A stretch of 64,000 nucleotides of DNA from an uncultured Gemmatimonadota bacterium. Lineage in GTDB: Bacteria; ARS69. The stretch covers positions 3,679 through 67,678 of the forward strand of contig CAYYFX010000006.1 in assembly GCA_964471155.1 (NCBI GenBank), in the 5' to 3' direction. Below the pieces are notes generated by a model. That model was given only the letters and a program-made list of their open reading frames with translations, was not told the DNA's origin and ran no database searches. Shown in pieces: positions 4,512 to 53,425 of this stretch. The position numbers were made by a program, and so were the translations under genes. Every line of letters begins with the position of its first letter. Position 1 is the first letter of the stretch.

Positions 4512-4514
4512 CCC

Positions 4515-4979
4515 GTGGCCGGCGCGAGGCCGCGCGCGGGCGTCCGCATCGACATGACCGCCATGGTGGACGTGGCGTTCCTGCTGCTCATCTTCTTCAT
4601 GTCCACCACGCAGTTCCGCCCGCCGGAGCAGGTGTCCGTCACGCTGCCGCTGTCGGACTCCGAGATCCACGTGCCGGAGACCTCCACCATCGTGATCACG
4701 GTGAACAAGGAGGGACGCGTGTACATCTCCAGCGAGAAGGGAACGGATGCCGTGGAGGTGGACGCGGCGAACGCGCTCGACGCGGTGGTGACCTGGCGGA
4801 GGCGGAACCCGGCGGCCGTGGTGGTGGTGAAAGGGGACAAGGACGCGTCCTTCGGCGTGATCTCGGACGTGATGAACACGCTGGCCGAGGCGAAGACCCC
4901 GCGCTTCAACCTGATGACCGACCTCCGGCGCAAGCCGCTCGGCTCGGCGGACGCGGGTCCGGGAGGCGGCAATGGCTGA
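4515..4979 (+). CDS. exbD: Biopolymer transport protein ExbD/TolR
   Basis: IDMTAMVDVAFLLLIFFM matches the ExbD signature (I-N/D-x-T-P-x-x-D-V-x-L-V-L-L-x-F-F). GTG start 3 nt after the exbB stop. Confidence 0.85.
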   Translation: MAGARPRAGVRIDMTAMVDVAFLLLIFFMSTTQFRPPEQVSVTLPLSDSEIHVPETSTIVITVNKEGRVYISSEKGTDAVEVDAANALDAVVTWRRRNPAAVVVVKGDKDASFGVISDVMNTLAEAKTPRFNLMTDLRRKPLGSADAGPGGGNG

Positions 4980-5469
4980 CGTGCAGGTCGCCGATCGCGG
5001 GAAGCGAGGATCCTCCGGGCTCGGCACGCGCCGCCCGAAGCGCCGCGTGGGCATCCGTATCGACATGACGCCCATGGTGGACGTGGCGTTCCTCCTGCTG
5101 ATCTTCTTCATGGTCACCACGGTCTTCCGCCGCCCGCTCGCGATGGAAGTGAACATGCCGGATCCGGACGCGAAGGTGGAGGTGCCGGAGTCCAAGGTGA
5201 TGACCGTGTACGTGGACGCGGACGACACCATGCGCGCCCGGCTCGGCACCGGGGACCTCGTGGAGATGGACTGGAACGGGCTGTTCCGCGCCTTCGCCGA
5301 GAACACCATGACGCACCCCGATCTCATCGTGCTCGTGAAGGTGCACCGCGACGCGCGCTACGAGATGATGGTGAACATGATGGACGCGCTGGAGGAGGCG
5401 AAGATGGAGCGCTTCAGCGTCGTCGAGATGCAGGAGAAGGACCTGGAGCTCCTGCGGGGGAACGGCTGA
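4972..5469 (+). CDS. exbD: Second ExbD/TolR paralog
   Basis: IDMTPMVDVAFLLLIFFMVTTVF. Its start overlaps the previous stop (ATGGCTGA). Confidence 0.85.
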   Translation: MADVQVADRGKRGSSGLGTRRPKRRVGIRIDMTPMVDVAFLLLIFFMVTTVFRRPLAMEVNMPDPDAKVEVPESKVMTVYVDADDTMRARLGTGDLVEMDWNGLFRAFAENTMTHPDLIVLVKVHRDARYEMMVNMMDALEEAKMERFSVVEMQEKDLELLRGNG

Positions 5470-6227
5470 TGGCCCGCGACACCATGCACATCCCGTGGGC
5501 GTTCTCCCTCGCGCAGGCGCCGGCCCTGCCGCTCACCGGCGAGGACCATCCGCTGCGGCGCGAGCTGGCGCGATGGCTGGTGTGGGCGTGCGGCGTCACG
5601 CTGGCGCTCGCGCTGGCGGCGTTCGCCACATGGTACTTCTGGAGCCGCGCGAAGCCGGAGGCGCCGGTGGAGCGGCGCGTGCAGATCGTCCGCTACACGG
5701 ACCTCGGCGTGCCGCCGTCCATCGCGCGGCCCGCCGTGCCTCAGATGGCCATCGCGCAGGCGGTGGCGCCGCCCGCCATCGGCATCCCGGAGCCCGTGAA
5801 GGACGAGATCGCGCCGCAGCAGACCATCGCCACGCAGGAGGAGATCCAGGAGGCGCTGGCGCCCATCACCGCCACGGACCTCGGACTGAGCGGCGGGGAC
5901 TCCCTGGTCGTGGACATCGACGTGGACACGAGCCCCTCCCCGGACGAGTTCGTGGCCGTGGACGAGCAGCCCGTGCGCCTGCGCATCGACCCGCCCGTCT
6001 ACCCGGACGTGGCCCGCTCCGCCGGCATCGAGGGCACCGTGCTGGTGCGCGTGCTCGTGGACAAGGAGGGCAAGGTGAAGGACGTGATCGTCATCGAGCC
6101 CATCCCGCTGCTGGAGGAGGCCGCGGTGAAGTGCGCGCGGACGGCGGTGTTCCGCCCGGCCATCTCGCAGGGGCGGCCCGTGGAGGTGTGGGTCGTGATG
6201 CCGGTGACGTTCAAGCTGTTCGACTAG
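5469..6227 (+). CDS. tonB: TonB-family energy transducer (C-terminal TonB domain)
   Basis: ATG overlaps the exbD stop by 1 nt (TGATGG). One N-terminal TM segment. The C-terminus VRLRIDPPVYPDVARSAGIEGTVLVRVLVDKEGKVKDVIVIE is a TonB_C motif. Confidence 0.75.
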   Translation: MARDTMHIPWAFSLAQAPALPLTGEDHPLRRELARWLVWACGVTLALALAAFATWYFWSRAKPEAPVERRVQIVRYTDLGVPPSIARPAVPQMAIAQAVAPPAIGIPEPVKDEIAPQQTIATQEEIQEALAPITATDLGLSGGDSLVVDIDVDTSPSPDEFVAVDEQPVRLRIDPPVYPDVARSAGIEGTVLVRVLVDKEGKVKDVIVIEPIPLLEEAAVKCARTAVFRPAISQGRPVEVWVVMPVTFKLFD

Positions 6228-6310: not shown

Positions 6311-6940
6311 TCACTCATGGTCCCGGAAATGCCCCTTGATCACGCCCCAGGTCGACTCCTCCGTCGACACGACGCCGTTCGTCTCGACGCGGAAGTTGTC
6401 GAAGAAGACGTCGAACACGGGGCTGATGTGGTCCTCGACGATCAGGAGGATCCGATCGTCCGACGGCGTGAAGAACGCGTACGGGTCGAACGTGACGGTG
6501 TAGGTGTGCCACACCCCGTCGTCGACCAGGATGGGGTCGGCGCCGCTGATCGGGTCCGTGCCCACCAACCACCGCCCCACGATGGGCACCGCGGTCTCGT
6601 CCGCGTAGCCGACGAACCCCCCATGGCTGCCGGGGATGGTCCCGGCCACCGGCAAGCCCAGGTAGTCGAAGGAGAGCGTGATCATCTCTCCTGCCGAGAC
6701 CGGGAACTCGACGCTGAAGATGTCCCCGAAGCCGGTCGTCTGGGCGAACGTCACGACGCCGTTCGACGGGTCCAGCGGGTCGGCGACGATGACGCCGGAG
6801 TGGGCGCCGTTGCTCTTCCCGGTCCACTGCGCCAGGGTACCCTGGAAGTCCTCGCTGAAGAGAACCACCTGGGAGACGGTCGACTGGGGGACTCCCATGA
6901 TTGCCGCCAGCGCGATTGCGGGAAGCCAAGCCTTGTGCAT
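6311..6940 (-). CDS. Secreted hypothetical protein with C-terminal STWGVIKGHFR motif
   Basis: ATG at 6940-6938 is preceded by AAGGAGG. Signal peptide MHKAWLPAIALAAIMGVPQ. Its C-terminal decapeptide is shared with the beta-helix protein at 39538..41028. Confidence 0.6.
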   Translation of the reverse strand: MHKAWLPAIALAAIMGVPQSTVSQVVLFSEDFQGTLAQWTGKSNGAHSGVIVADPLDPSNGVVTFAQTTGFGDIFSVEFPVSAGEMITLSFDYLGLPVAGTIPGSHGGFVGYADETAVPIVGRWLVGTDPISGADPILVDDGVWHTYTVTFDPYAFFTPSDDRILLIVEDHISPVFDVFFDNFRVETNGVVSTEESTWGVIKGHFRDHE

Positions 6941-33120: not shown

Positions 33121-34803
33121 ATGGCCTCCATGTCCCAGACCGAACCCCTGGAGATCGCCCGCCGGGCCCCGTCCTCGGCGTCGGCGTCGGACTCCTCCGG
33201 TCCCGCGTTCGCGCGCTTCGACCCGGAGACCCGGCGCGAGGCCGAGCGGTCCCTGTCCGTCGCGGCGCTGACCTACGCGGTCGTGTACTTCCTGGCGTAC
33301 ACCACGGGCTGGCTGCTGGACCCCGGACCCGGTCCCTCCCCCTTCCCGCCCCTGCACTCCCTGGTCGTCGCCGGGCTCTCCATCCTCGGGGCGGTCGTCG
33401 TGGGGTTCAAGGCGCGCAAGGGGATGCTCCCCCCGGTCAGCTTCGAGCCGCTCGCCGGCGCGTTCGGCGTCCTGGGATCGCTCGGGATCGCGGCCGGGTC
33501 GCACGAGTGGCGCGCCTTCATCGAGGCGGATCCGCGGATCGCCGGCATCTCCTGGATCGGCGTGTGGGTCATCGCGTATCCGAACCTGGTGACGCTCTGC
33601 CCGATGACCGTGCTCCGTGTCGGGCTCCTGTCGGCCCTGTGCATGCCGGTCATGTACGCGATCGCGGTTCCCTTCGAGGGCCTGCCGGTCGTGGACGGCC
33701 GGCCCAGCGCGGGCGCGGCGATCACGTTCCTCGCGCAGCTCACGTTCCCCATCCTGCTCTGCGCGGGCATGTCCACGTTCATGGCCATCCGCATCTTCCG
33801 CATGGCCCACGACGTCTCGCGCGCCCGCCGCCTCGGCAACTACCACCTCGTGGAGCTGCTCGGACGCGGCGGCATGGGCGAGGTGTGGCGCGCCACGCAC
33901 CGTCTCCTCGCGCGGCCGGCGGCGGTGAAGGTGATCCGGTCGAACGGCGCGGGCGGCGGATCGTCCGGCTCCGGCACGCCGGGCAGCACCATGCTCAAGC
34001 GCTTCGAGCGCGAGGCGAAGGCCACGGCGTCCCTCACCTCGCCGCACACCGTGGCGCTGTACGACTTCGGTCTCGCCCAGGACGGCGCGTTCTACTACGT
34101 GATGGAGCTGCTCGAGGGCATGGACCTGCGCACGCTCGTCGAGAGGACGGGCCCGGTGCCGTCGGCGCGCGTGGTGCACTTTCTGCGCCAGGCCTGCGCC
34201 TCGCTCGCGGATGCGCACCAGTGCGGGCTGATCCACCGGGACGTGAAGCCCGCGAACCTGTACCTCTGCCGCCGCGGTCTCCAGTACGACTTCGTGAAGG
34301 TCCTGGACTTCGGCCTCGTGAAGGGCGCCCCCGAGGGGATGGACACGGGGCAGCTCACCATGGAGGGCACCACCAGCGGCACGCCGGCCTTCATGGCGCC
34401 GGAGATGTCGCTGGCGACCGGCCCGATCGACGCGCGGGTGGACCTGTATGCGCTCGGATGCGTGGCGTACTGGCTGCTGACGGGCCGACTGGTCTTCGAG
34501 GGGCCGAACGCCCTCGCCATCCTCGTGCAGCACGCCAAGGAGGAGCCGGTCCCGCCGTCGAAGGTCGTCGAGCTCCCCGTCAACCCCGACCTCGACGCGC
34601 TCGTGATGCAGCTCCTGCGGAAGGACCCGGCGCAGCGCCCCCCCGACGCCGTGGAGCTGGACCGCCGGCTGGCCGCCATCGAGGCGAAGCACGGCGCGTG
34701 GACGCAGGAGCAGGCCGAGCGCTGGTGGCGCGCGCACCTCCCGCACCTCGCGGGCGCGGGCGCCCTCCGGACGGAGCGTCCGCTCGCCGCTGCCGCGCCG
34801 TGA
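33121..34803 (+). CDS. Membrane-anchored Ser/Thr protein kinase (N-terminal ~230-aa polytopic domain, C-terminal Hanks kinase)
   Basis: Kinase motifs: GRGGMGEVW, AVKVI, HRDVKPANLYL, VLDFGL, GTPAFMAPE. The N-terminal region has 6-7 TM helices and no soluble sensor domain. Confidence 0.85.
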   Translation: MASMSQTEPLEIARRAPSSASASDSSGPAFARFDPETRREAERSLSVAALTYAVVYFLAYTTGWLLDPGPGPSPFPPLHSLVVAGLSILGAVVVGFKARKGMLPPVSFEPLAGAFGVLGSLGIAAGSHEWRAFIEADPRIAGISWIGVWVIAYPNLVTLCPMTVLRVGLLSALCMPVMYAIAVPFEGLPVVDGRPSAGAAITFLAQLTFPILLCAGMSTFMAIRIFRMAHDVSRARRLGNYHLVELLGRGGMGEVWRATHRLLARPAAVKVIRSNGAGGGSSGSGTPGSTMLKRFEREAKATASLTSPHTVALYDFGLAQDGAFYYVMELLEGMDLRTLVERTGPVPSARVVHFLRQACASLADAHQCGLIHRDVKPANLYLCRRGLQYDFVKVLDFGLVKGAPEGMDTGQLTMEGTTSGTPAFMAPEMSLATGPIDARVDLYALGCVAYWLLTGRLVFEGPNALAILVQHAKEEPVPPSKVVELPVNPDLDALVMQLLRKDPAQRPPDAVELDRRLAAIEAKHGAWTQEQAERWWRAHLPHLAGAGALRTERPLAAAAP

Positions 34804-34807
34804 TTCC

Positions 34808-37111
34808 GTGACGGTGGATCGCTCCCGCCTCGAAGGCGCGGTCGGCGTCGCCACGCTGTGCGCCTTCCTCCTGGTCGCCAACCAGGTCGCGGCGAAGGCC
34901 GTGCGCGACGCGCTCTTCCTCTCGCACTTCGACGTCACGCTCCTGCCCCGCCTGGTGATGGCCGCGTCCGCCGTGTCCATCGTGGCCGCGCTGGCGGCCT
35001 CCCGCCTGCTCGGGCGGTTCGGACCCTCCCGGCTCCTGCCCGCCGCCTGCGCGATCAGCGCGACCGTCGTGCTCGGCCTCGCCGCGATCCAGCCCGCCCT
35101 GCCGCGCGTGACCGCGGTCGGGATCTACGTGCACATCAGCATCTTCGGCGCGGTGCTCATCTCCTGGTTCTGGTCCATGCTGAACGAAGGGCTCGATCCG
35201 AGCACGGCGCGCCGGCGCGTGGGCCGCATCGCGGGCGGCGGGACGCTGGGCGGGCTGCTGGGCGGGCTCGCCGCGGAGCGCGTGGCCAGCATGTTCTCCA
35301 CGGACGCGATGCTCCCGCTGCTCGCCGCCGCGCACGCGGCGTGCGCGCTGCTGGCCTGGCAGACCTCCAGCGTGCTGGACATCCGCCACCCCGCGTCGGC
35401 CGGCGATCCGCCCGCGCGCTCGGGGTTCCAGGTGCTCGCCGAGGTCAGGTACCTGCGCGAGCTCGGCGCGCTCGTGATGGTGGGCACCGTCGCGGCCACG
35501 CTGCTGGACTTCGTGTTCAAGGCGCGCGCCGCCGCCACCTTCGACGGCGACGAGCTGCTCCGCGCCTTCGCGCTCTTCTACTCGGCCACGAGCCTCGCCA
35601 CCTTCCTGCTGCAGTCCACGCTGACGCGGCGGCTGCTGGCCCGCGGGGTGGCGCCCACCGCGGCCTCCCTGCCGGCGATCGTGACGCTGGGCGCGGCCGG
35701 CGCGCTCATCGTGCCCGGGTTCCTGGCGGCGGGCATCGCGCGCGGCCTGGAGTCCGCGGTGCGCAGCTCCTTCTTCCGGTCCAGCTACGAACTCTTCTAC
35801 ACGCCGGTGCGCCGCGCCGACAAGCGCGCGGCGAAGACGCTCGTGGACGTGGGCTTCGACCGCCTCGGGGACGCGGTGGGCGGCGGGCTCGTGCAGGTCG
35901 TGCTGCTGGGCGGCGCCGCGCTCGGCCTGGGGACCGCGGCCGGCGGCCTGACCACGGTGGCGCTGCTCGTCCTCGCCGGGGTGCTGGGGCTCGTCGGGCT
36001 GACGCTCGCCCGGCGGCTGGACCGAGGGTACACGCGCGCGCTGGAGTCCAGCCTTCTGGATCACGGCGCCCCGGGCGCCGGCGCCACGGCCACCACGCTG
36101 CGGTCCGCGCTGGAGTCGCAGTCCGCGTTCTTCCCCACGCTCACGCAGCTCGAGCTCGGCGGCGAGGGGATGGACGTCCGGGAAGGTACGCCGCCCGACG
36201 CGATCGCCGTGGCGGACGTCGCGGCGGCGGCGGCGGCGGCCCCGTCCGCGACGCCCGCGGCGCCCGCGGTCGACGCCCCGCCGGTTCCCGAGGACCCGGT
36301 GCTGCGGCACGCCACGGAGCTGCGCTCCGGGAACGTGGACCGCGTGCGCGCCGCCCTGGCCGCGATCGGCGAACCGCCCTCCGAGCTGATCTCCATCCTG
36401 ATCCGGCTGCTGGCATGGGACGCGGTTTCAGCGGACGTGGTGGAGGTGCTGCGCCGCGCCGGCGACCGGCACGTGGGGCAGCTCGTGGACGCGCTGCTGG
36501 ATCCGGACGAGGAGTTCGCCACGCGGCGGCGCCTGGCGCGCGTGCTCGCCACGAGCTCGTCGCCGCGGGCGGTGCGCGGACTGCTCGCCGCGCTCGGCGA
36601 CGCGCGCTTCGAGGTGCGCTTCCGCGCCGCCGTGGCGCTGGCGCGATTGCACGAGCGGCGCCCGGACGTGGAGATGGATCCGCTGTCGGTGCTCGCCGCC
36701 GTGGAGCGCGAGGCGCGCGTGAACCGGCACGTGTGGGAGAGCAACCGGCTGCTGGACGAGATCGGTCGCGAGGAGTCCCCGTTCTACGACGAGATCCTGC
36801 GCACGCGCTCGTCGCGCAGCCTGGAGCACGTGTTCAACGTGCTGTCGCTCGTGTACCCGCCGCAGGCCCTGCGCATCGCGTACCGCGGTCTGCACGCGGA
36901 GGACCGCACGCTGCGCGGCACCGCGCTGGAGTACCTGGAGCAGATCCTCCCGCCCGCCGTGCGGGAGTGCCTGTGGCCGTTCCTGGACGACGACCGGGAT
37001 GTCCACGGCGCGGCCCGCGGCCTGGACGACGTGATGGACTCCCTGCTGCGCTCGCACGAGTCCATCCAGGTGGATCTGCAGCGGCTGCGGCAACGCGAGG
37101 ACTCGCGCTGA
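34808..37111 (+). CDS. TLC-family transporter-like membrane domain fused to a C-terminal HEAT/ARM repeat domain
   Basis: GTG start 5 nt after the kinase stop. N-terminal ~400 aa with at least 10 TM and the TLC motif ISWFWSMLNEGLDPSTARRRVGRIAGGGTLGGLLGG. The C-terminus has HEAT-like repeats (RAVRGLLAALGDARFEVRFRAAVALARL...). Confidence 0.75.
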   Translation: MTVDRSRLEGAVGVATLCAFLLVANQVAAKAVRDALFLSHFDVTLLPRLVMAASAVSIVAALAASRLLGRFGPSRLLPAACAISATVVLGLAAIQPALPRVTAVGIYVHISIFGAVLISWFWSMLNEGLDPSTARRRVGRIAGGGTLGGLLGGLAAERVASMFSTDAMLPLLAAAHAACALLAWQTSSVLDIRHPASAGDPPARSGFQVLAEVRYLRELGALVMVGTVAATLLDFVFKARAAATFDGDELLRAFALFYSATSLATFLLQSTLTRRLLARGVAPTAASLPAIVTLGAAGALIVPGFLAAGIARGLESAVRSSFFRSSYELFYTPVRRADKRAAKTLVDVGFDRLGDAVGGGLVQVVLLGGAALGLGTAAGGLTTVALLVLAGVLGLVGLTLARRLDRGYTRALESSLLDHGAPGAGATATTLRSALESQSAFFPTLTQLELGGEGMDVREGTPPDAIAVADVAAAAAAAPSATPAAPAVDAPPVPEDPVLRHATELRSGNVDRVRAALAAIGEPPSELISILIRLLAWDAVSADVVEVLRRAGDRHVGQLVDALLDPDEEFATRRRLARVLATSSSPRAVRGLLAALGDARFEVRFRAAVALARLHERRPDVEMDPLSVLAAVEREARVNRHVWESNRLLDEIGREESPFYDEILRTRSSRSLEHVFNVLSLVYPPQALRIAYRGLHAEDRTLRGTALEYLEQILPPAVRECLWPFLDDDRDVHGAARGLDDVMDSLLRSHESIQVDLQRLRQREDSR

Positions 37112-37121
37112 ATCGCCCGGC

Positions 37122-37135
37122 GGTCCGGCCGGACC
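37122..37135 (+). terminator. Perfect 14-nt palindrome GGTCCGGCCGGACC 11 nt after the TLC-HEAT stop; possible U-tract-less terminator hairpin
   Basis: Self-complementary sequence at 37122-37135 with no following T-run. Confidence 0.2.
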
Positions 37136-37297
37136 CCGATCAGGCCGCCGCCCGGCTCGTGCACCCGGCCAGCGCGAGCGCGGCCCCCAGGACGACTCCC
37201 ACGCGACGGGACACGCGATCTCCTCCGGGAGCGGGGAAGGCAGTATGCTTCGCGACCCGACGGGACACAAGCGGCCGCGAGGGCGGAGGGTACACGC

Positions 37298-39187
37298 ATG
37301 GAACAGGCCGCGGCCGCCGAACGCCCGTCGCGGGCCGCGTTCGTCATGGGCATGGTGCTGCTGGTCGCACTCGTGCTCGGCGTGTACGCGCGGACCGTCG
37401 GCTTCGGCCTCACCTCCTGGGACGACGACGTCCACCTGACCGCGAACCCGCGGCTGGCGCCCACGCTCGCGAGCGCCGCCGGGTTCTGGGCGGCGCCGTA
37501 CTCGGGGCTGTACATCCCGCTCACGTACACGGTGTACGCGGCGGAGGCCGCGCTGGCGGAGGCGCTCGCCGGGGATCCGCTCGATCCACGCGTGTTCCAC
37601 GCGGGGTGCGTCGTGCTGCACGCGGCGGCGGCGTGCCTGGCCTTCGCGCTCCTGCACGCGGTGACGGGGAGGGCGACGCCGGCGGTCCTGGGCGCCGCCC
37701 TGTGGGCCGTGCATCCGCTGCAGGTGGAGAGCGTGGCGTGGGTGTCCGAGACGAAGGGGCTGCTGGCGGCGGTGTTCATGCTCGCCGCGCTGCGGGCCTA
37801 CCTGCGATTCCGGGATGCGGGTCGCGGGCGCGGCGCGTACCTGCTCGCCACGGCGTGCTTCGCGCTGGCGCTGCTCGCGAAGCCGGTGGCGCTCGTGACG
37901 CCGCTGCTCGCCGTCATCCTGGACGCCGGAGTGCGCCGCCGGCCGCTGCGCGACGCGTGGCGACCGCTCGCGCCGTGGTTCGCGCTGGCCGCCGGGTTCG
38001 CCCTGCTCACGAAGGCGCTGCAGCCCGACGACGTCGTGATGGACATCGCGCCGGTCGCCGCGCGGCCGATCGTCGCGCTCGACGCGTTGGGGTTCTACCT
38101 GGCGAGGACCGTGGCGCCGTTCGACCTCGCGATCGACTATGGGCGTTCGCCGGCGGCGGTCCTCTCGCGGCCGGCGTGGGGCGGGCTGTGGATCGTGGCG
38201 CTGCTGGTCGCCGCCGCGGGCGCGGCGCCGCCGCTGCGGCGAACGGTCGGCGTTCCGCTCCTGTGGTTCGCCGCCGCGCTGTCCCCCGTGCTCGGACTCG
38301 TGCCGTTCGGCTACCAGTACACGTCCACCGTCGCGGACCGCTACGTGTACGTCGCGCTGCTGGGGCCGGCGATGGCGGCGGTGTTCCTGCTGGCGCGCTT
38401 CCCGGGGCGCACGGCCCGCGTCGTGGCGGCGGCGGCCGTCGTCCTGCTCGCGCAGGCGTCCCTGCGGCAGGCGAACGCGTGGCGCTCCAGCGGCACGCTG
38501 TACGCGGCCACGCTCGCCGTGAACCCGGGCAGCATCCACGCGAACAACAACCTCGGGCTGCTCGCGCTGGAGGAGGAGCGCGCGGCGGAGGCGCTGGCGC
38601 GATTCGACCGCGCGCTCGCCACGCGCGACGACTACGTGCCGGCGCTGGTGAACCGCGCGAAGGCGCTGCGCCGGCTGGGCCGCGAGGACGAGGCGGTCGC
38701 CGCGGCGGAGCGCGCGGCGGGGATCGCGCCGGGGTTCGTCCCCGCGCGCGTGGAAGCCGCCGCCGCCCTGCTCGCGGCGGGGCGCGAGGACGACGCGGTG
38801 GCGCACCTCCAGGCCGCGTTCGCCGCGCGGCCGGACGACCCGGACGTGAACGTGAGCCTCGCGCGTTTCGCCCGGTCCCGCGGCGAGATCGCCGTGGCCG
38901 AGCAGCATCTGCGCCGCGCGCTGGCGGCGGACCCCGGCTTCGCGGAGGCGCACCGCGAGCTGGCCTCGTGCCTCTGGCAGCAGGGCGACGAGGCCGCCGC
39001 GGTTGCCGCCTACGAGGCCGCGTTGCGCGCGGACCCGCGATCCTTCGCGGCCCATCGCGACCTGGGCAAGCTGCTCATGAACCGCGGGGATGCGGCGGGT
39101 GCCGCCGCCCACTGGCGGGAGGCCGCCGCGCTCCGGCCGGAGGATGCGGAAGTGCGCGCCTACCTGCAGCGGCTGGTCGGCGAATAG
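37298..39187 (+). CDS. TMTC/PMT_2-like polytopic membrane protein with C-terminal TPR repeats (putative glycosyltransferase-family scaffold)
   Basis: ATG 7 nt after GGAGGG. N-terminal loop motif TSWDDDVHLTANP (the DD/DE motif of PMT/TMTC-type C-family glycosyltransferases). At least 10 TM segments. Five or more C-terminal TPRs (NNNLGLLALEEER..., AEAHRELASCLWQQGD...). Confidence 0.75.
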   Translation: MEQAAAAERPSRAAFVMGMVLLVALVLGVYARTVGFGLTSWDDDVHLTANPRLAPTLASAAGFWAAPYSGLYIPLTYTVYAAEAALAEALAGDPLDPRVFHAGCVVLHAAAACLAFALLHAVTGRATPAVLGAALWAVHPLQVESVAWVSETKGLLAAVFMLAALRAYLRFRDAGRGRGAYLLATACFALALLAKPVALVTPLLAVILDAGVRRRPLRDAWRPLAPWFALAAGFALLTKALQPDDVVMDIAPVAARPIVALDALGFYLARTVAPFDLAIDYGRSPAAVLSRPAWGGLWIVALLVAAAGAAPPLRRTVGVPLLWFAAALSPVLGLVPFGYQYTSTVADRYVYVALLGPAMAAVFLLARFPGRTARVVAAAAVVLLAQASLRQANAWRSSGTLYAATLAVNPGSIHANNNLGLLALEEERAAEALARFDRALATRDDYVPALVNRAKALRRLGREDEAVAAAERAAGIAPGFVPARVEAAAALLAAGREDDAVAHLQAAFAARPDDPDVNVSLARFARSRGEIAVAEQHLRRALAADPGFAEAHRELASCLWQQGDEAAAVAAYEAALRADPRSFAAHRDLGKLLMNRGDAAGAAAHWREAAALRPEDAEVRAYLQRLVGE

Positions 39188-39342
39188 TCCGCCTTCGCCT
39201 CGAGAAGGTGCTCGGTGTGTCCGCGGAGTTCTGGCTCGGGCTCCAGCAGGACTGGGATCTGTGGCACGCGTTACGTGCGCCGGAGGCCCGGGCCATCGCG
39301 CGGCTCAAGCCGTTGCCGGAGCCGCGCCGGAGCGCGGCGTGA
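39181..39342 (+). pseudogene. Remnant of a HigA-family (XRE-HTH) antitoxin gene; only the C-terminal ~50 codons remain
   Basis: The frame-1 translation RLRLEKVLGVSAEFWLGLQQDWDLWHALRAPEA matches the HigA C-terminus (ALRLARFFGTSPEFWLNLQTAYDL). The HTH-encoding 5' part is missing because the upstream TPR gene ends at 39187 in another frame. Confidence 0.4.
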
Positions 39343-39537
39343 TGGTCAAGGCTCCGCGGCCCGGGGCGAGTCCCCCCAGGCGGCCGTGATCGCGCCGAAG
39401 ATGTCCGCCTGGTCCACGTACGGACCGCGCACCGGATCCGTCCCGCGGTGGCGAGGAAGACGTTGTGGCCGGCGCCGTCCGCGATGAGGAGGATGACGTG
39501 CTTCGCGCGCGCGGCGGATGCCCACGAGGCCTTCACG

Positions 39538-41028
39538 TCACCGGAATCGCGCCTTGATCGATCCCCAGGTGGCCCGCTCCAGGGACGACGGACCGCACCA
39601 CGCACCGAGCACGCCGATGAGCCCGCAGCCGCCGCTGTTCCCGGCCGCGCACGGCGAGTCCGCCTGCAGGCTGAAGTCCTCGTTCTCCCGCGAGCAGAAC
39701 AGGGGATCCGCGCAGAGGTTCCCGTCCGCGCCCTCCCGACCGGCGAGGCAGTCGGTCCAGTCCCCGCCGTGGTTGCCGAAGATGTCGGTGCAGCGGACCG
39801 TCAGCGCCGCGGGTGTTCCGGCGCAGCGGACCGGGGTGATGGGGCCGTCGGGCGCGCCGCCGAAGGCCAGGATGGAGTTCTCCAGCACCAGCGTGCCGCC
39901 CTCCTGGATCTCGATCGTGGCCATCGGCCGGCAGCCGACCCAGACGCAGTGGTCCGCCGTCACCGAACCGCTCGGGCCCCCGCACAGGCTACCGGCCGTG
40001 ATGCTGCTCCGCTGCCGACTGCTCCCGACGAACGTGCAGTGCTCCAGCCGAACGCGGCCCGCGCAGAACAGGTCCGTCCCGCCCATCCAGCCGCCCCAGT
40101 TGCGGAGGAACGTGGTGTTCCGGATCGTCACGTTCCCGTACAGGAAGCCCGCCCCGCCGAACACGTCCGCCGAGCAGTCCTCGAACACGCAGCTTCCCAC
40201 GAGGACCTCGCTGTCGGGGCCGGTGAACAGACCGCCGCTGTCCACGTTCCAGCCGCCGTTGAACCGGCAGCGGAGGATCGCCGCCTTCCCGCCGACGATC
40301 ACGTGGTTGCCGCTCGTGTACTCGCAGTACGGCGCCCCGCCCGGATCGAAGATGCAGTCGATCAGCGAGCCGTCGTCCATGCAGACCGCGCCGCCGTAGG
40401 CGCACGCGCCGTTCCCGCGGAAGAGGCAGCGTTCCACCTCGACCCGACCGCCCCGCGCGTAGATCGCGCCGCCGTAGATCGCCGCGCTGTTCTCGATGAA
40501 CTCGCAGTCCAGCGCGCGCAGGAATCCCCCCTCGATGAAGACGCCGCCGCCGCGGGCCGCGCCGCTCACGTACGGGACCCCCTCGACACGGCAGTCCACC
40601 AGCGTCAGCGACGCCCCGCCCGCGCGGATCGCCCCGCCGTCGCCTTCCCCGGTCCACCGCCCGTGGAACGCGTTGGCCATCGTGATGCCCTCGATGCGCG
40701 CCGTGGTCCCCGCGTCGAATGCGAAGCAGAAGTGCGGCGAGCGCCCGTGGCCCTCGTCCCCGTCGAGGATGGTGGCGTCGATCATGGTGGCGTCGCGGCC
40801 GGAGACCGACCGGAAGTCCAGGTCCTTGGCGCCGACCTGGATGTCCAGGTTCTCGAGCCCGCCGAACACCCCGGCACCCAGCTCGATGACGTCCCCGCTC
40901 TGGGCGAGCTGCACGGCGGAGCGCAGGTCCGGGACGTCACCGGACCCGTCCGGGTTCACGAGGATCGTGGCGGCAAACGCGGAGCCGGAGGCGATCAGGA
41001 ATACCGGCGCGAAGACGATCGGGCGCAT
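39538..41028 (-). CDS. Secreted right-handed parallel beta-helix (pectate-lyase-fold) protein with C-terminal ATWGSIKARFR motif
   Basis: ATG at 41028 after GGAGG. Signal peptide MRPIVFAPVFLIASGSAFAATIL. Many Gly/Asn/Cys-rich ~22-aa beta-helix repeats (GGAIYARGGRVEVERCLFRGNGA...). The 5' part of track ORF 39538..41124 is not included. Confidence 0.7.
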   Translation of the reverse strand: MRPIVFAPVFLIASGSAFAATILVNPDGSGDVPDLRSAVQLAQSGDVIELGAGVFGGLENLDIQVGAKDLDFRSVSGRDATMIDATILDGDEGHGRSPHFCFAFDAGTTARIEGITMANAFHGRWTGEGDGGAIRAGGASLTLVDCRVEGVPYVSGAARGGGVFIEGGFLRALDCEFIENSAAIYGGAIYARGGRVEVERCLFRGNGACAYGGAVCMDDGSLIDCIFDPGGAPYCEYTSGNHVIVGGKAAILRCRFNGGWNVDSGGLFTGPDSEVLVGSCVFEDCSADVFGGAGFLYGNVTIRNTTFLRNWGGWMGGTDLFCAGRVRLEHCTFVGSSRQRSSITAGSLCGGPSGSVTADHCVWVGCRPMATIEIQEGGTLVLENSILAFGGAPDGPITPVRCAGTPAALTVRCTDIFGNHGGDWTDCLAGREGADGNLCADPLFCSRENEDFSLQADSPCAAGNSGGCGLIGVLGAWCGPSSLERATWGSIKARFR

Positions 41029-41127
41029 GGGACCTCCCCGTCCACGACCCGAGGGCACGCCCCACACTAGGAGCACCCACGCCCCGTTACAAGCGCCGAG
41101 GATCCTCACGACGCACGCTGACATTTG

Positions 41128-41622
41128 TCAGGGTCTCGCCGGCCGGCCTCCCTGCAGCGTGTCGCGCACCGCGGTCTGCCGGTACGTGAAGATCCGGTGG
41201 AGCTGCCGCTGCACCAGGGGCAACGCCCCGTCCCCGAGCGGTGCGAACGGCAGCCGGTACCGCACGCGATCCCGGATGCGCGTCCCGCTCGCCGTGTCCT
41301 CGAAGTCGTGCGTGTGGACCCACCGCGCGTACGGCCCCGCGATCTGCTCATCGGTGAACGCGAGCGGCGGCTCCCACCGCGTGATGCGCGACGTCCACCC
41401 GAACGGCACGCCGAACAGGCGCAACCGGTACCGGATCTCCGCGCCCGGGCGCATGGCGATCGGGGGCGGCGTCACGATGCGGAAGCGAAGCTCCGGCGGC
41501 GTGATCCGCTCCAGGTTCCCGGCCTCGCCGAAGAACGCGAAGACCACGTCCCGCGGGAGCGGAAGGTCCATCTCCGCCTCCAGGACGTGATCCCCGCCGT
41601 CACGCAGCCCGGTCCGGACCAC
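41128..41622 (-). CDS. SRPBCC-superfamily protein (polyketide-cyclase/Bet v1-like)
   Basis: 164 aa from the GTG at 41622. The alternative ATG at 41571 has GGAGG 5 nt upstream and would give 147 aa. Typical SRPBCC pattern ...[21 protein letters not shown]... Confidence 0.65.
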
Positions 41623-51244: not shown

Positions 51245-53425
51245 ATGACCCCTTCGATCCTCCGCGCCCCTGCCCACGCCTGGACTCTCGCCTGCCTCGT
51301 CGCGGCCATGCCGGTTTCCGCCGCGGCGCAATGCGTCGACTACGCCGATCACCTGCGATGGATCGGTGGCGTGGACACCGGCTTCGACGGCGAGGCCCGC
51401 GACATCGCGGTCGCCGGATCCCGCGCATACCTGGCGAACCTCAACTCGGGCTTCTACGTCCTCGACGTGGGCGACCCGCGCGCGCCGCGCATCCTCGGTC
51501 ACGTGGACACGCCGCACTCGGCCTCGGCGGTGGACGTGGCCGGCCCGTACGCGTACGTCGCGGACGGCGCCACCGGGCTGCTCGTGATCGACGTGTCCGA
51601 TCCCGGGGATCCGCGGATCGTGGGCACCGTGGACACGCCGGGATACGCGTGGGACGTCGTCGTGTCGGGGACGCTCGCCTACCTGTCGGACCAGTACCGC
51701 CTGCTCGTGATCGACGTGGCGAACCCGGCCGCACCTTGGATCCGGGGCGGCGTGGATCTCGCCCAGTTCGGGGTACAGATCGCGCTCTCCGGGCACCACG
51801 TGTTCGCCGCCGTGCGCACGGCGGGTTTCCAGGTCATCGACGTCGGCGACCCGTCGGCGCCCGCGGTCGTGGCGGGCGGTCCTCCCACGCCGGTGGAGGG
51901 CATCGCCGTGCACGGCGCGCACGCCTACCTGGCCTGCCAGGGCAACGGCCTGGTCGTGCTGGACATCTCGGACCCGGTCCATCCGCAGGTCGTGGGCGTC
52001 GCGGACGAGCCGGGCGCGACCGCCGGCCGCGTGGCGGTGGACGGCCCGCTCGCCTGGGTCGCGGACGGCTCCCGGAGCGTACGCACCGTGGACGTGAGCG
52101 ACCCCGCGGATCCGCGCCTGCTCGGCCGCATGAGCCTCTCCCCCTTCTCGGTCCAGGGCATCGCGGCGATCGGCCCGCTCGCCTACGTGGCGAACGGCTA
52201 CGCCGGCGTGCAGATCCTCGACGGCACGGCGCCGGCGGCCGTGCCCACCCTCGGATCGCTGGACGAGTACCTCGGGTTCCGGGGCGTGGCCGCCACCGCC
52301 ACACACGCCTTCGTCGGCCTCGACGATCTGTTCCAGTCGGTGGACATCACCGACATCCACACGCCGGTCGCCGACGGCGGCGTTGCCCTGGGCCGCGACA
52401 TCCTCCGGATCGCCCTGGACGGGAATCTCGCGTATGTCGCGAACTCGGGACTCGCGATCGTGGACGTGAGCGATCCGCGCTTCCCGCAGATCGTCTCGAA
52501 CGTCGACGTGGGCGCACACTGCATCGACCTCGTTCTCGCGGGCACGCGCGTGCTCGCCGCGAGCGGCGAGGACGGGCTGGTCGTCTTCGACGTGAGCGAC
52601 CCCGCGGCGCCCGCGATCGAGGGTTGGATTCCCACCGGGGACTACGCCGCGGGCATCGCCCTGTACGGGAACCTGGCGTTCGTCGCCGACCGTGACGGGG
52701 GTCTGCTGGTCGTGGAGGTCTCCCGGCCGACGGCCCCCCGGATCATCGAGACGGTGCCGCTCCAGGACGCGGTGGACGTCGACGTCATCGGCGACGCCGT
52801 CGTCGTCGCGACGCAGCTCACCGGCATCCACGTCTTCCGAGCCACGGACCCGTCGGACCATCGCATCGTGACGAACCTGCGGACGCCGTACTCCACCCGC
52901 AGCGTCACGGGCGCCGGGCCGTTCGCGTACGTCGCCGACTCGGGGGTGGGCGTCGTGCTGGTCGACGTGTCGGATCCGCGGGCTCCCCGGGTGACCGGGT
53001 CCGTGGACGTCCCGTACTCCCGCGACATCTTCGTTGCCGCGGAGCACGTCTTCGTCACGACGACCTACGATCCCGGTGGCCTGCGCATCGTGCCGCGGCA
53101 CTGCGGTCCCGCCTTCGCCTCCACCGGTGTTCCTGTCCCCGCGTCCGCGGCCCCGACCGCGCTCCGGACGTTCCCCAATCCCAGCGTGAAGTTCGCGTCG
53201 GTGCGCGTGGAGACCTCCGCGCGAGGCGCCGTCCGCGCGACGATCCACGATGCCGCCGGCCGCCTCGTGCGCCGTCTCGCGGACGGCACGATGGACGCGG
53301 GCGCGCATGATCTCGCCTGGGACCACCGGGATGCGACCGGCCGGCCCGTGGCGTCCGGGGTCTACCTGCTGCGCGTGGCCACGGTGGACGGGACCCGCAC
53401 GACCCGCATGGTGGTCCTGAAGTAG
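51245..53425 (+). CDS. Secreted LVIVD-repeat beta-propeller protein with C-terminal T9SS-type (Por_Secre_tail) sorting domain
   Basis: Signal peptide ACLVAAMPVSAAA. At least 12 repeats of the L-V-V/I-D-V-S-D-P pattern (LLVIDVSDPGDPRIVG, LVVLDISDPVHPQVVG...). The last 84 aa FPNPSVKF...GVYLLRV...TRMVVLK fit the TIGR04183 pattern. Confidence 0.8.
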   Translation: MTPSILRAPAHAWTLACLVAAMPVSAAAQCVDYADHLRWIGGVDTGFDGEARDIAVAGSRAYLANLNSGFYVLDVGDPRAPRILGHVDTPHSASAVDVAGPYAYVADGATGLLVIDVSDPGDPRIVGTVDTPGYAWDVVVSGTLAYLSDQYRLLVIDVANPAAPWIRGGVDLAQFGVQIALSGHHVFAAVRTAGFQVIDVGDPSAPAVVAGGPPTPVEGIAVHGAHAYLACQGNGLVVLDISDPVHPQVVGVADEPGATAGRVAVDGPLAWVADGSRSVRTVDVSDPADPRLLGRMSLSPFSVQGIAAIGPLAYVANGYAGVQILDGTAPAAVPTLGSLDEYLGFRGVAATATHAFVGLDDLFQSVDITDIHTPVADGGVALGRDILRIALDGNLAYVANSGLAIVDVSDPRFPQIVSNVDVGAHCIDLVLAGTRVLAASGEDGLVVFDVSDPAAPAIEGWIPTGDYAAGIALYGNLAFVADRDGGLLVVEVSRPTAPRIIETVPLQDAVDVDVIGDAVVVATQLTGIHVFRATDPSDHRIVTNLRTPYSTRSVTGAGPFAYVADSGVGVVLVDVSDPRAPRVTGSVDVPYSRDIFVAAEHVFVTTTYDPGGLRIVPRHCGPAFASTGVPVPASAAPTALRTFPNPSVKFASVRVETSARGAVRATIHDAAGRLVRRLADGTMDAGAHDLAWDHRDATGRPVASGVYLLRVATVDGTRTTRMVVLK

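Follow-up and report, generated by a model that had tools for sequence, protein, structure and literature searches.

Predictions of which proteins a bacterium displays at its surface rely mainly on C-terminal sorting and anchoring signals. In the type IX secretion system (T9SS), the signal is a type A domain (TIGR04183 / PF18962, FlgD_ig-like PF13860), a folded Ig-like unit of ~70-100 residues. The catalogued small C-terminal sorting signals are tripartite and consist of a motif, a transmembrane helix and an Arg cluster (10.1101/2023.06.07.544157). We analyzed a stretch of 64,000 nucleotides from an uncultured Gemmatimonadota bacterium (contig CAYYFX010000006.1, positions 3,679 to 67,678; the whole stretch is referred to as the window), in which two unrelated exported proteins carry the same ten-residue C-terminal peptide, (S/T)WGxIKAx(Y/F)R. 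This peptide, hereafter the tag, is widespread on secreted proteins of Eisenbacteria-like and related bacteria and is apparently undescribed. The two tagged genes of the window and their relevant parts are as follows:

39538..41028, minus strand: exported right-handed beta-helix / PMP-repeat protein of 496 aa, carrier of the first tag (PF13229 at 37.2 bits, plus a POMP repeat)
39541..39573, minus strand: C-terminal tag ATWGSIKARFR of the beta-helix protein, with the stop codon at 39538..39540
40972..41028, minus strand: predicted Sec signal peptide MRPIVFAPVFLIASGSAFA of the beta-helix protein (heuristic reading only)
6311..6940, minus strand: exported protein of 209 aa with a CBM-like jelly roll at residues 24-188 (AlphaFold2, Foldseek), carrier of the second tag
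6323..6355, minus strand: tag STWGVIKGHFR of the 209-aa protein, followed by DHE and the stop codon (6311..6322)

The original prediction, made from the letters of the window, had placed a shared peptide at the end of these two genes, and both its coordinates and its description of the motif proved correct. The 496-aa protein ends in ...ERATWGSIKARFR and the 209-aa protein in ...EESTWGVIKGHFRDHE, in each case followed by the stop codon. A six-frame regular-expression scan of the window found the tag in these two genes and nowhere else, and the back-translated pattern ACNTGGGGN4ATHAARN6TTYMG matched only the same two sites, with no match in any of 100 dinucleotide-preserving shuffles, a result that rules out a chance resemblance of the two tags. 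The carriers are otherwise unrelated, as had been claimed: BLASTP similarity between them is limited to the last 18 residues (10/18 identical), and one fold is a beta-helix, the other a CBM-like jelly roll. Both N-termini are Sec-like, again in agreement with the earlier claim, reading MRPIVFAPVFLIASGSAFA|A in the beta-helix protein and MHKAWLPAIALAAIMGVPQSTVSQ|V in the second tagged protein; here and below, signal peptides were called by a home-made heuristic that picks the best start codon. The homologue P0002, with a clearer signal peptide, gives a further basis for the predicted signal-peptide reading, and the N-terminus of the beta-helix protein is the same in locus L100 and in P0028. At the DNA level, the likeness between the two tagged genes is restricted to shared codons. 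The orthologue of the beta-helix protein in the syntenic locus L100 ends in ERSSWGSIKALFR and shows synonymous changes in Gly, Ser and Arg codons. A DNA-level repeat was likewise ruled out as the source of the peptide, given that the likeness resides only in codons, synonymous variation is free and the GC content of tagged loci spans 31-74%.

The distribution of the tag was examined by scanning one genome per species with the degenerate DNA pattern WSNTGGGGNNNNATCAARGCNNNNTWYMG, which imposes no stop codon and fixes Ile as ATC and Ala at position 6; the taxon labels given below are those of the submitters. The scan yielded at least 133 matches in at least 119 loci. Among the matches listed, the stop codon directly follows the final Arg in 107 of 133 (80%) and is separated from it by one residue in another 14, which puts 121 of the 133 no more than one residue from the stop; just five or so are genuinely internal. 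The listed loci range in GC content from 31 to 74% and make use of all synonymous codons for Gly, Ala, Arg, Ser and Thr, and therefore selection acts on the peptide. Submitter labels among the matches listed include Eisenbacteria, Latescibacterota, Krumholzibacteriia, Gemmatimonadota, KSB1, Kryptoniota and Ignavibacteria/Melioribacter, and further Caldithrix, Delongbacteria, Chlorobiaceae and Bacteroidetes, lineages that we take to belong largely to the Fibrobacteres-Chlorobi-Bacteroidetes (FCB) group and its neighbours. Of the 106 complete carriers from this set, 98 have a signal-peptide-like N-terminus by the heuristic and about 3-5 a lipobox, while the carrier domains are diverse (beta-helix, CBM-like, NHL, FG-GAP, PD40, CHRD, FN3 and many unknown). 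Four pattern matches on viral contigs were uninformative, two being ordinary C-terminal tags, one lying in the wrong frame and one being a probably chance internal match in a tail fibre.

A second search, with a 16-position profile of the tag against 1.84 billion representative proteins, gave 65 matches at E up to 0.001, and every single-copy match lies at the very end of its protein. The extended consensus reads [TS][PA]VExx[ST]WGxIKA[LM][YF]R-COOH. Among 120 homologues of the beta-helix protein, 83 have [ST]WGx[IVL]Kxx[YF]R among their final residues, with Trp conserved in 83/83, Gly in 76/83, Lys (position -5) in 81/83 and Tyr/Phe in 80/83, and with Arg as the last residue in 64/83. Five further beta-helix homologues (P0088, P0094, P0124, P0131, P0144) have a Trp-less C-terminal variant, ..[FI]GS[IL]K[QR]LYG[GN].., which may be a related sub-type of the tag. 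In one carrier family (L007, L016, L035, L044, L077, L083, L090), a C-x-P-N-P-C motif recurs a few residues before the tag, e.g. ..CEPNPCDFGSPVEAASWGKIKANYRR. Scans of 12 carriers, comprising both window proteins and 10 others, found no Pfam or NCBIfam model that covers the tag, the profile had no match beyond chance among PDB sequences, and a literature search that included the motif strings returned no description of it. The tag is thus not confined to the two proteins of the window, is rarely internal and is enriched on exported proteins, all in keeping with the original prediction.

What stands in the place of the tag in related proteins bears on its function. The jelly roll of the 209-aa protein, for which Foldseek returned CBM22, CBM16 and the EphA (ephrin-receptor) ligand-binding domain, is shared by its homologues up to ...FFDNIxV, after which they differ: many end in PEP-CTERM or VPLPA-CTERM (four above the NCBIfam cut-offs), others in the TWG tag (P0003, P0005), and others have nothing at this position. 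In untagged homologues of the beta-helix protein, the place of the tag is taken by a T9SS type A / FlgD_ig domain, and the two are not combined in any of the 120 homologues. In addition, an NHL-repeat carrier resembles the PEP-CTERM protein ScyF. Two N-terminal domain families, the CBM-like and the beta-helix, are accordingly each followed by different C-terminal anchors depending on the lineage, the hallmark of a choice-of-anchor arrangement, and the tag and the PEP-CTERM or T9SS C-terminal domains replace one another in evolution. The presence of the tag in the slot of these domains, on carriers that are predominantly exported and tagged near the stop codon (98/106 and 121/133 of those listed, respectively), supports a localisation role. 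The sorting or anchoring logic that had been proposed from the window is borne out in this respect, and we regard it as likely that the tag serves, in one way or another, to localise or anchor its carriers; it probably decides where in the cell envelope they end up. A T9SS domain is also found in the window itself:

53171..53416, plus strand: T9SS type A sorting domain, C-terminal in an LVIVD-repeat protein (gene 51245..53425; 32.6 bits for TIGR04183, cut-off 23; 42 bits for PF13860)

This domain suggests that the source organism has a T9SS-type secretion route. With a hidden Markov model (HMM) built from T9SS-type domains, 36 of the 119 tag loci listed were found to encode such a domain; together with the case in the window, this indicates that both C-terminal modules coexist in the same cells.

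In its build, the tag departs from the described signals. It is a unit of 10-16 residues at the extreme C-terminus, parted from the folded domain by a short, Pro/Glu-rich linker that is predicted to be disordered. Only 0-4 residues follow the motif, with no hydrophobic stretch among them, and in place of an Arg cluster there is a single terminal Arg. For both window proteins and 10 other carriers, no CTERM model matched at E up to 1, although the same scan does detect PEP-CTERM in homologues of the tagged proteins. The tagged window proteins gave no match to TIGR04183, PF18962, PF13860 or PF13585 either, with the LVIVD protein of the window passing as a positive control; compared to the folded Ig-like sandwich of the T9SS domain, the tag is a mere 10-16 residues on a predicted disordered linker. 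The initial likening of the tag to processed signals such as LPXTG or PEP-CTERM is therefore not supported, as the tag has neither a transmembrane segment nor a basic cluster.

Structure prediction agrees with a tethered peptide. The AlphaFold2 model of the 209-aa protein (mean predicted local distance difference test score, pLDDT, 80.5) comprises the jelly roll at residues 24-188, a disordered segment at residues 189-197 (pLDDT <50) and a short helix at residues 198-206 that corresponds to the tag (pLDDT ~50). In the model of a widespread 132-aa carrier family, described below, the tag is coil (pLDDT 56-61), and in neither model does it pack against the folded domain. Within the motif, the two variable positions are spaced i and i+4, as are Gly and Ala, and Ser/Thr occupies the N-cap position. 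This sequence pattern would fit a helix of 2.5 turns with W, I, K, Y/F and R forming a conserved face. The xIKAL segment matches a designed coiled-coil heptad in the PDB profile search. The mean hydrophobicity of the tag is ~0, and its helical hydrophobic moment is reached by 24-75% of shuffles, as compared to 1.5% for the 20-residue PBP5 helix. An amphipathic membrane anchor of the PBP5/6 type was rejected on account of this unexceptional moment and the length of only 10 residues.

A minority of proteins carry the tag in more than one copy or away from the C-terminus. Between two and five copies, in tandem or interleaved with domains, occur in P0268, P0278, P0280, P0282 and others, and in P0269, P0270 and P0276 the tag directly follows the signal peptide. 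Some proteins combine one tag just after the signal peptide with a second at the C-terminus, and a group of lipoproteins with a weak match to NTF2/SnoaL is built as [domain + tag] x 2. Several of the internal copies are slightly degenerate (WG -> WA). The multi-tag lipoprotein set comprises P0268, P0269, P0270, P0274-P0280, P0282, P0287, P0290, P0293, P0329 and locus L121:7357-9987. The tape-measure-like proteins P0272 (692 aa) and P0281 (925 aa), with five tandem motif-like repeats (VTKTWGEIKSAF, GWSALKALYRW), were judged unrelated and probably convergent. In two metagenome-assembled genomes (MAGs) of Patescibacteria, the motif ..R[SA][ST]WGxIKALYRG.. lies right after the signal peptide of an M23 peptidase and of one further protein each:

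L006:1277-1966, minus strand: Patescibacteria carrier
L006:2800-3351, minus strand: Patescibacteria carrier
L096:489-1271, minus strand: Patescibacteria carrier
L096:3009-3851, minus strand: Patescibacteria carrier (two of these four are M23 peptidases)

The motif is thus not strictly bound to the C-terminus. A sorting signal that is processed once, as had been envisaged, accommodates these forms poorly: two to five copies, internal copies after each repeated domain and copies after the signal peptide fit a docking peptide better.

One prominent group of carriers is a family of 132-aa proteins, each composed of a signal peptide, an FN3-like beta-sandwich and the tag:

L025:476-874, plus strand: member of the 132-aa family (with about 26 other loci, e.g. 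L010, L023, L042, L066, L072, L104)

The family comprises 907 clusters, all named 'hypothetical'. The 120 of these 907 clusters that were listed all end in RTWGSIKAMFR, while the rest of the protein is only 60-70% identical. Among the matches listed, this family is the only tag carrier under the low-GC Ignavibacteria, Melioribacter, Bacteroidetes and Chlorobiaceae labels, and members also occur in KSB1, Kryptoniota and Caldithrix MAGs. The gene immediately precedes a SpoIID-family gene in 9 of the ~27 loci listed, with maf and an LPG_synthase_TM gene next in line; in three of these nine loci, the start of the SpoIID gene is overlapped by the stop codon of the tag carrier. Homology of the sandwich to the T9SS C-terminal domain was considered and dismissed (hhalign probability 0.3%).

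We also looked for a gene that could act on the tag. As had been stated for the window, no sortase-like or peptidase gene adjoins either tagged gene. All-versus-all clustering of 2,902 open reading frames from the 119 loci listed and the window revealed no recurrent untagged neighbour except for Ignavibacteria synteny, and no recurrent cognate sorting enzyme was found as a neighbour in these loci or in the window. Locus L121 has a tandem of three tagged paralogues, after which comes an Rce1-like CPBP intramembrane protease; a PorV/PorP-like barrel is encoded close by. As this adjacency was seen in no other locus, the protease was not retained as a partner of the tag.

The evidence for the role of the tag is computational throughout, and the mechanism we favour, with about even confidence, is that the tag is a retained, tethered docking peptide that binds a conserved component of the envelope and thereby positions or retains the protein. 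A docking peptide is preferred over a cleaved signal because the tag is not of tripartite design and because it occurs in multi-copy, internal and post-signal-peptide forms. In this mechanism, the carrier would be exported by Sec and the tag would stay on the protein. We infer that the tag acts as a short linear docking motif that probably adopts a 2.5-turn helix on binding, its N-terminus capped by Ser/Thr. The face presented to the partner would consist of W1, I4, K5, Y8 and R9, with G2 and A6 permitting close packing and positions 3 and 7 left free. Binding would be non-covalent, to a conserved envelope component, whether a receptor protein or, for instance, peptidoglycan, lipopolysaccharide (LPS) or another polymer. 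It would retain or position the protein in the envelope, with extra tag copies adding avidity, and the tag would thus serve as a modular envelope-localisation unit for Sec-exported proteins of Eisenbacteria-like and related, mostly FCB-group bacteria.

Several points weigh against the docking peptide. The searches found no receptor or ligand, so docking is arrived at by exclusion. The near-absolute placement at the extreme C-terminus and the strict choice of Lys over Arg at position 5 would equally suit an enzyme that reads the free C-terminus, or a chemistry of the Lys side chain. Internal copies in duplicated proteins, including the degenerate ones, may be relics of recent duplications. AlphaFold2 models the tag with low confidence and in a different conformation in each of the two proteins, and the export of the carriers was judged by the home-made heuristic described above.

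Other explanations account for parts of the data. The tag could be a processed C-terminal sorting signal that is removed or transferred by a sortase-like enzyme, or a minimal T9SS signal, by which the protein crosses the outer membrane or becomes attached to it. The stop codon right after Arg in 80% of the matches listed, the swapping with PEP-CTERM and T9SS C-terminal domains and the origin of most carriers from T9SS-type lineages, with T9SS-domain proteins in the same genomes and in 36/119 loci listed, all speak for such a signal, as do the shared hydrophobic-hydrophobic-basic-COOH ending (LYR or MFR in the tag, LVR or VLK in the T9SS domain) and the tagged paralogues of L121 next to the CPBP protease and PorV/PorP-like barrel. 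However, that adjacency does not recur, the tag lacks the transmembrane segment and Arg cluster of the known tripartite small signals and matches no CTERM or T9SS model, and ten residues are too short for the Ig-like fold of the T9SS domain. Tandem, internal and N-terminal copies are also at odds with it, as is the occurrence of the tag in Patescibacteria, which are expected to have neither an outer membrane nor T9SS. We therefore consider a processed sorting signal unlikely. Alternatively, the tag might tether its carriers to peptidoglycan, either by binding murein or by cross-linking of its Lys through an L,D-transpeptidase, in the manner of the ...YRK terminus of Braun's lipoprotein (Lpp). 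The Lys, which is almost never replaced by Arg (conserved in 81/83), and the Tyr/Phe-Arg end, loosely similar to YRK, would agree with this, and so would the recurring contexts, namely the M23 peptidases of Patescibacteria and the 132-aa FN3 family upstream of, and in three loci overlapping, the SpoIID-family gene. Some carriers are lipoproteins and would hence have two attachment points, and peptidoglycan is common to all lineages involved. Such a tether is doubtful nonetheless: the Lys, unlike that of Lpp, is not the terminal residue, the SpoIID adjacency extends to only 9 of the ~27 loci listed, and most carriers have surface-type domains whose homologues are surface-anchored via PEP-CTERM or T9SS.

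The tag might itself be an in-plane membrane anchor, a short interfacial helix that inserts into the leaflet or LPS like those of PBP5/PBP6, autonomously and with no protein partner. Its wealth of interfacial residues (W, Y/F, K, R), the helix in one AlphaFold2 model, the tolerance of different positions and multiple copies, and the presence in lineages with very different envelopes are consistent with such an anchor. Yet we deem it improbable in view of a hydrophobicity near zero, a moment no better than that of shuffles, a length that is very short for stable anchoring, and a conservation of W, G, K and R that is far stricter than usual in lipid-binding helices. A role outside targeting appears very improbable, whether in self-association, as a handle for chaperones or folding, or as a C-terminal degron read by an envelope protease. 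Short, conserved, free C-terminal peptides do resemble degrons, following the logic of ssrA/Tsp, and xIKAL does match the designed coiled-coil heptad, but these functions leave unexplained why PEP-CTERM or T9SS domains replace the tag in homologues, why it occurs in multiple copies and why it is perfectly conserved in the housekeeping-like 132-aa family. The last alternative, a chance resemblance or a peptide encoded fortuitously by a DNA-level repeat such as a terminator or the end of a mobile element, has only the short length of the motif in its favour; it is already refuted by the shuffles, by hundreds of in-frame tags that end at a stop codon across 31-74% GC with free synonymous variation, and by the absence of DNA similarity beyond the codons, and its probability is negligible.

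Returning to the docking peptide, we tentatively put forward the broader possibility, somewhat less probable than an even chance, that the tag represents a previously unrecognised envelope localisation system. Here, a non-tripartite, uncleaved docking peptide of ~10 residues would use a conserved receptor or wall polymer to localise large numbers of surface-type proteins in at least eight, mostly uncultured, FCB-related phyla. The invariant RTWGSIKAMFR on the FN3 family and the same peptide on secreted M23 hydrolases of Patescibacteria would fit such a system.

The genomic setting of the two tagged genes is unremarkable. The window (73% GC) is an ordinary chromosomal stretch of a diderm that encodes TonB, ExbD and an Omp85-family protein alongside genes of metabolism and regulation. 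A cluster of one TonB and two ExbD genes (4512..6227, plus strand) is convergent with the gene of the 209-aa tagged protein; a functional link is not in evidence. A gene at 37298..39187 (plus strand) encodes a membrane protein with a multi-pass N-terminal half, a WDDD motif and a C-terminal TPR domain, which by eye is TMTC/PMT-like. It is convergent with the adjoining beta-helix gene, a pairing that is kept only in the close syntenic relative L100. This relative (CAZNDO010000001.1, 'uncultured Gemmatimonadota bacterium binchicken_co242_78') is syntenic with positions 34178..41601 of the window at 87-89% nucleotide identity. The phylum labels of related MAGs are inconsistent: L100 is labelled Gemmatimonadota, and the protein homologues of the window are mostly labelled Candidatus Eisenbacteria. 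The LVIVD-repeat beta-propeller protein (51245..53425, plus strand) additionally matches the choice-of-anchor B domain, at a score below threshold.

If the proposed role is true, many 'hypothetical' proteins in Eisenbacteria, Latescibacterota, Krumholzibacteriia, Gemmatimonadota-labelled MAGs, KSB1 and Ignavibacteria would be marked as envelope-localised, and the tag would point to a new receptor or tethering chemistry in phyla that lack genetic systems. For annotators, it offers a pattern that is robust, widespread and easy to test, from which a simple HMM can be built.

Among known systems, PEP-CTERM/exosortase (TIGR02595, VPLPA-CTERM) resembles the tag in that many unrelated Sec-exported proteins, encoded at scattered places in the genome, carry it as a short C-terminal unit, and it occupies the exact same slot after the same CBM-like domain in homologues. 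The tag differs from it in having no PEP motif, transmembrane helix, Arg cluster or HMM match, in that it can be repeated, internal or N-terminal, and in that no exosortase-like partner was seen in the window or the 119 loci listed. The T9SS type A domain occurs in the same lineages and genomes as the tag, is mutually exclusive with it on beta-helix homologues and has the same type of terminal residues, whereas no homology was detected between that folded domain and the tethered peptide of 10-16 residues. Braun's lipoprotein is an envelope tether whose C-terminus, ...YRK, is linked to peptidoglycan by L,D-transpeptidases. It is similar to the tag in its very short, Tyr-Arg-containing C-terminus with an essential Lys and in the proposed tethering role, but its Lys is the last residue, whereas that of the tag lies at position -5 and the last residue is Arg (64/83), so the tag does not conform to the Lpp type. 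The choline-binding (CW_binding_1), GW, SLH and LysM repeats are folded units of 20-80 residues with known ligands. These non-covalent anchoring repeats are like the tag in logic only, as short aromatic/Gly units on exported proteins that are sometimes in tandem; the tag has ~10 residues and is usually present once, at the extreme C-terminus. Peroxisomal targeting signal 1 (PTS1), read by the TPR domain of PEX5, and the ligands of PDZ domains are C-terminal peptides of ~3-12 residues that are not cleaved and are read at the free C-terminus. They share with the tag the principle of a short, uncleaved C-terminal targeting peptide but belong to eukaryotic or cytoplasmic systems; no partner of TPR or PDZ type came to light for the tag, and the gene with a TPR domain beside the beta-helix gene is kept only in L100. 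C-terminal localisation tags on exported proteins are thus of a known kind, while the tag described here seems to be uncatalogued, as do its design and distribution; if its proposed role is true, a ten-residue tag without the tripartite design would add a new class of C-terminal signal.

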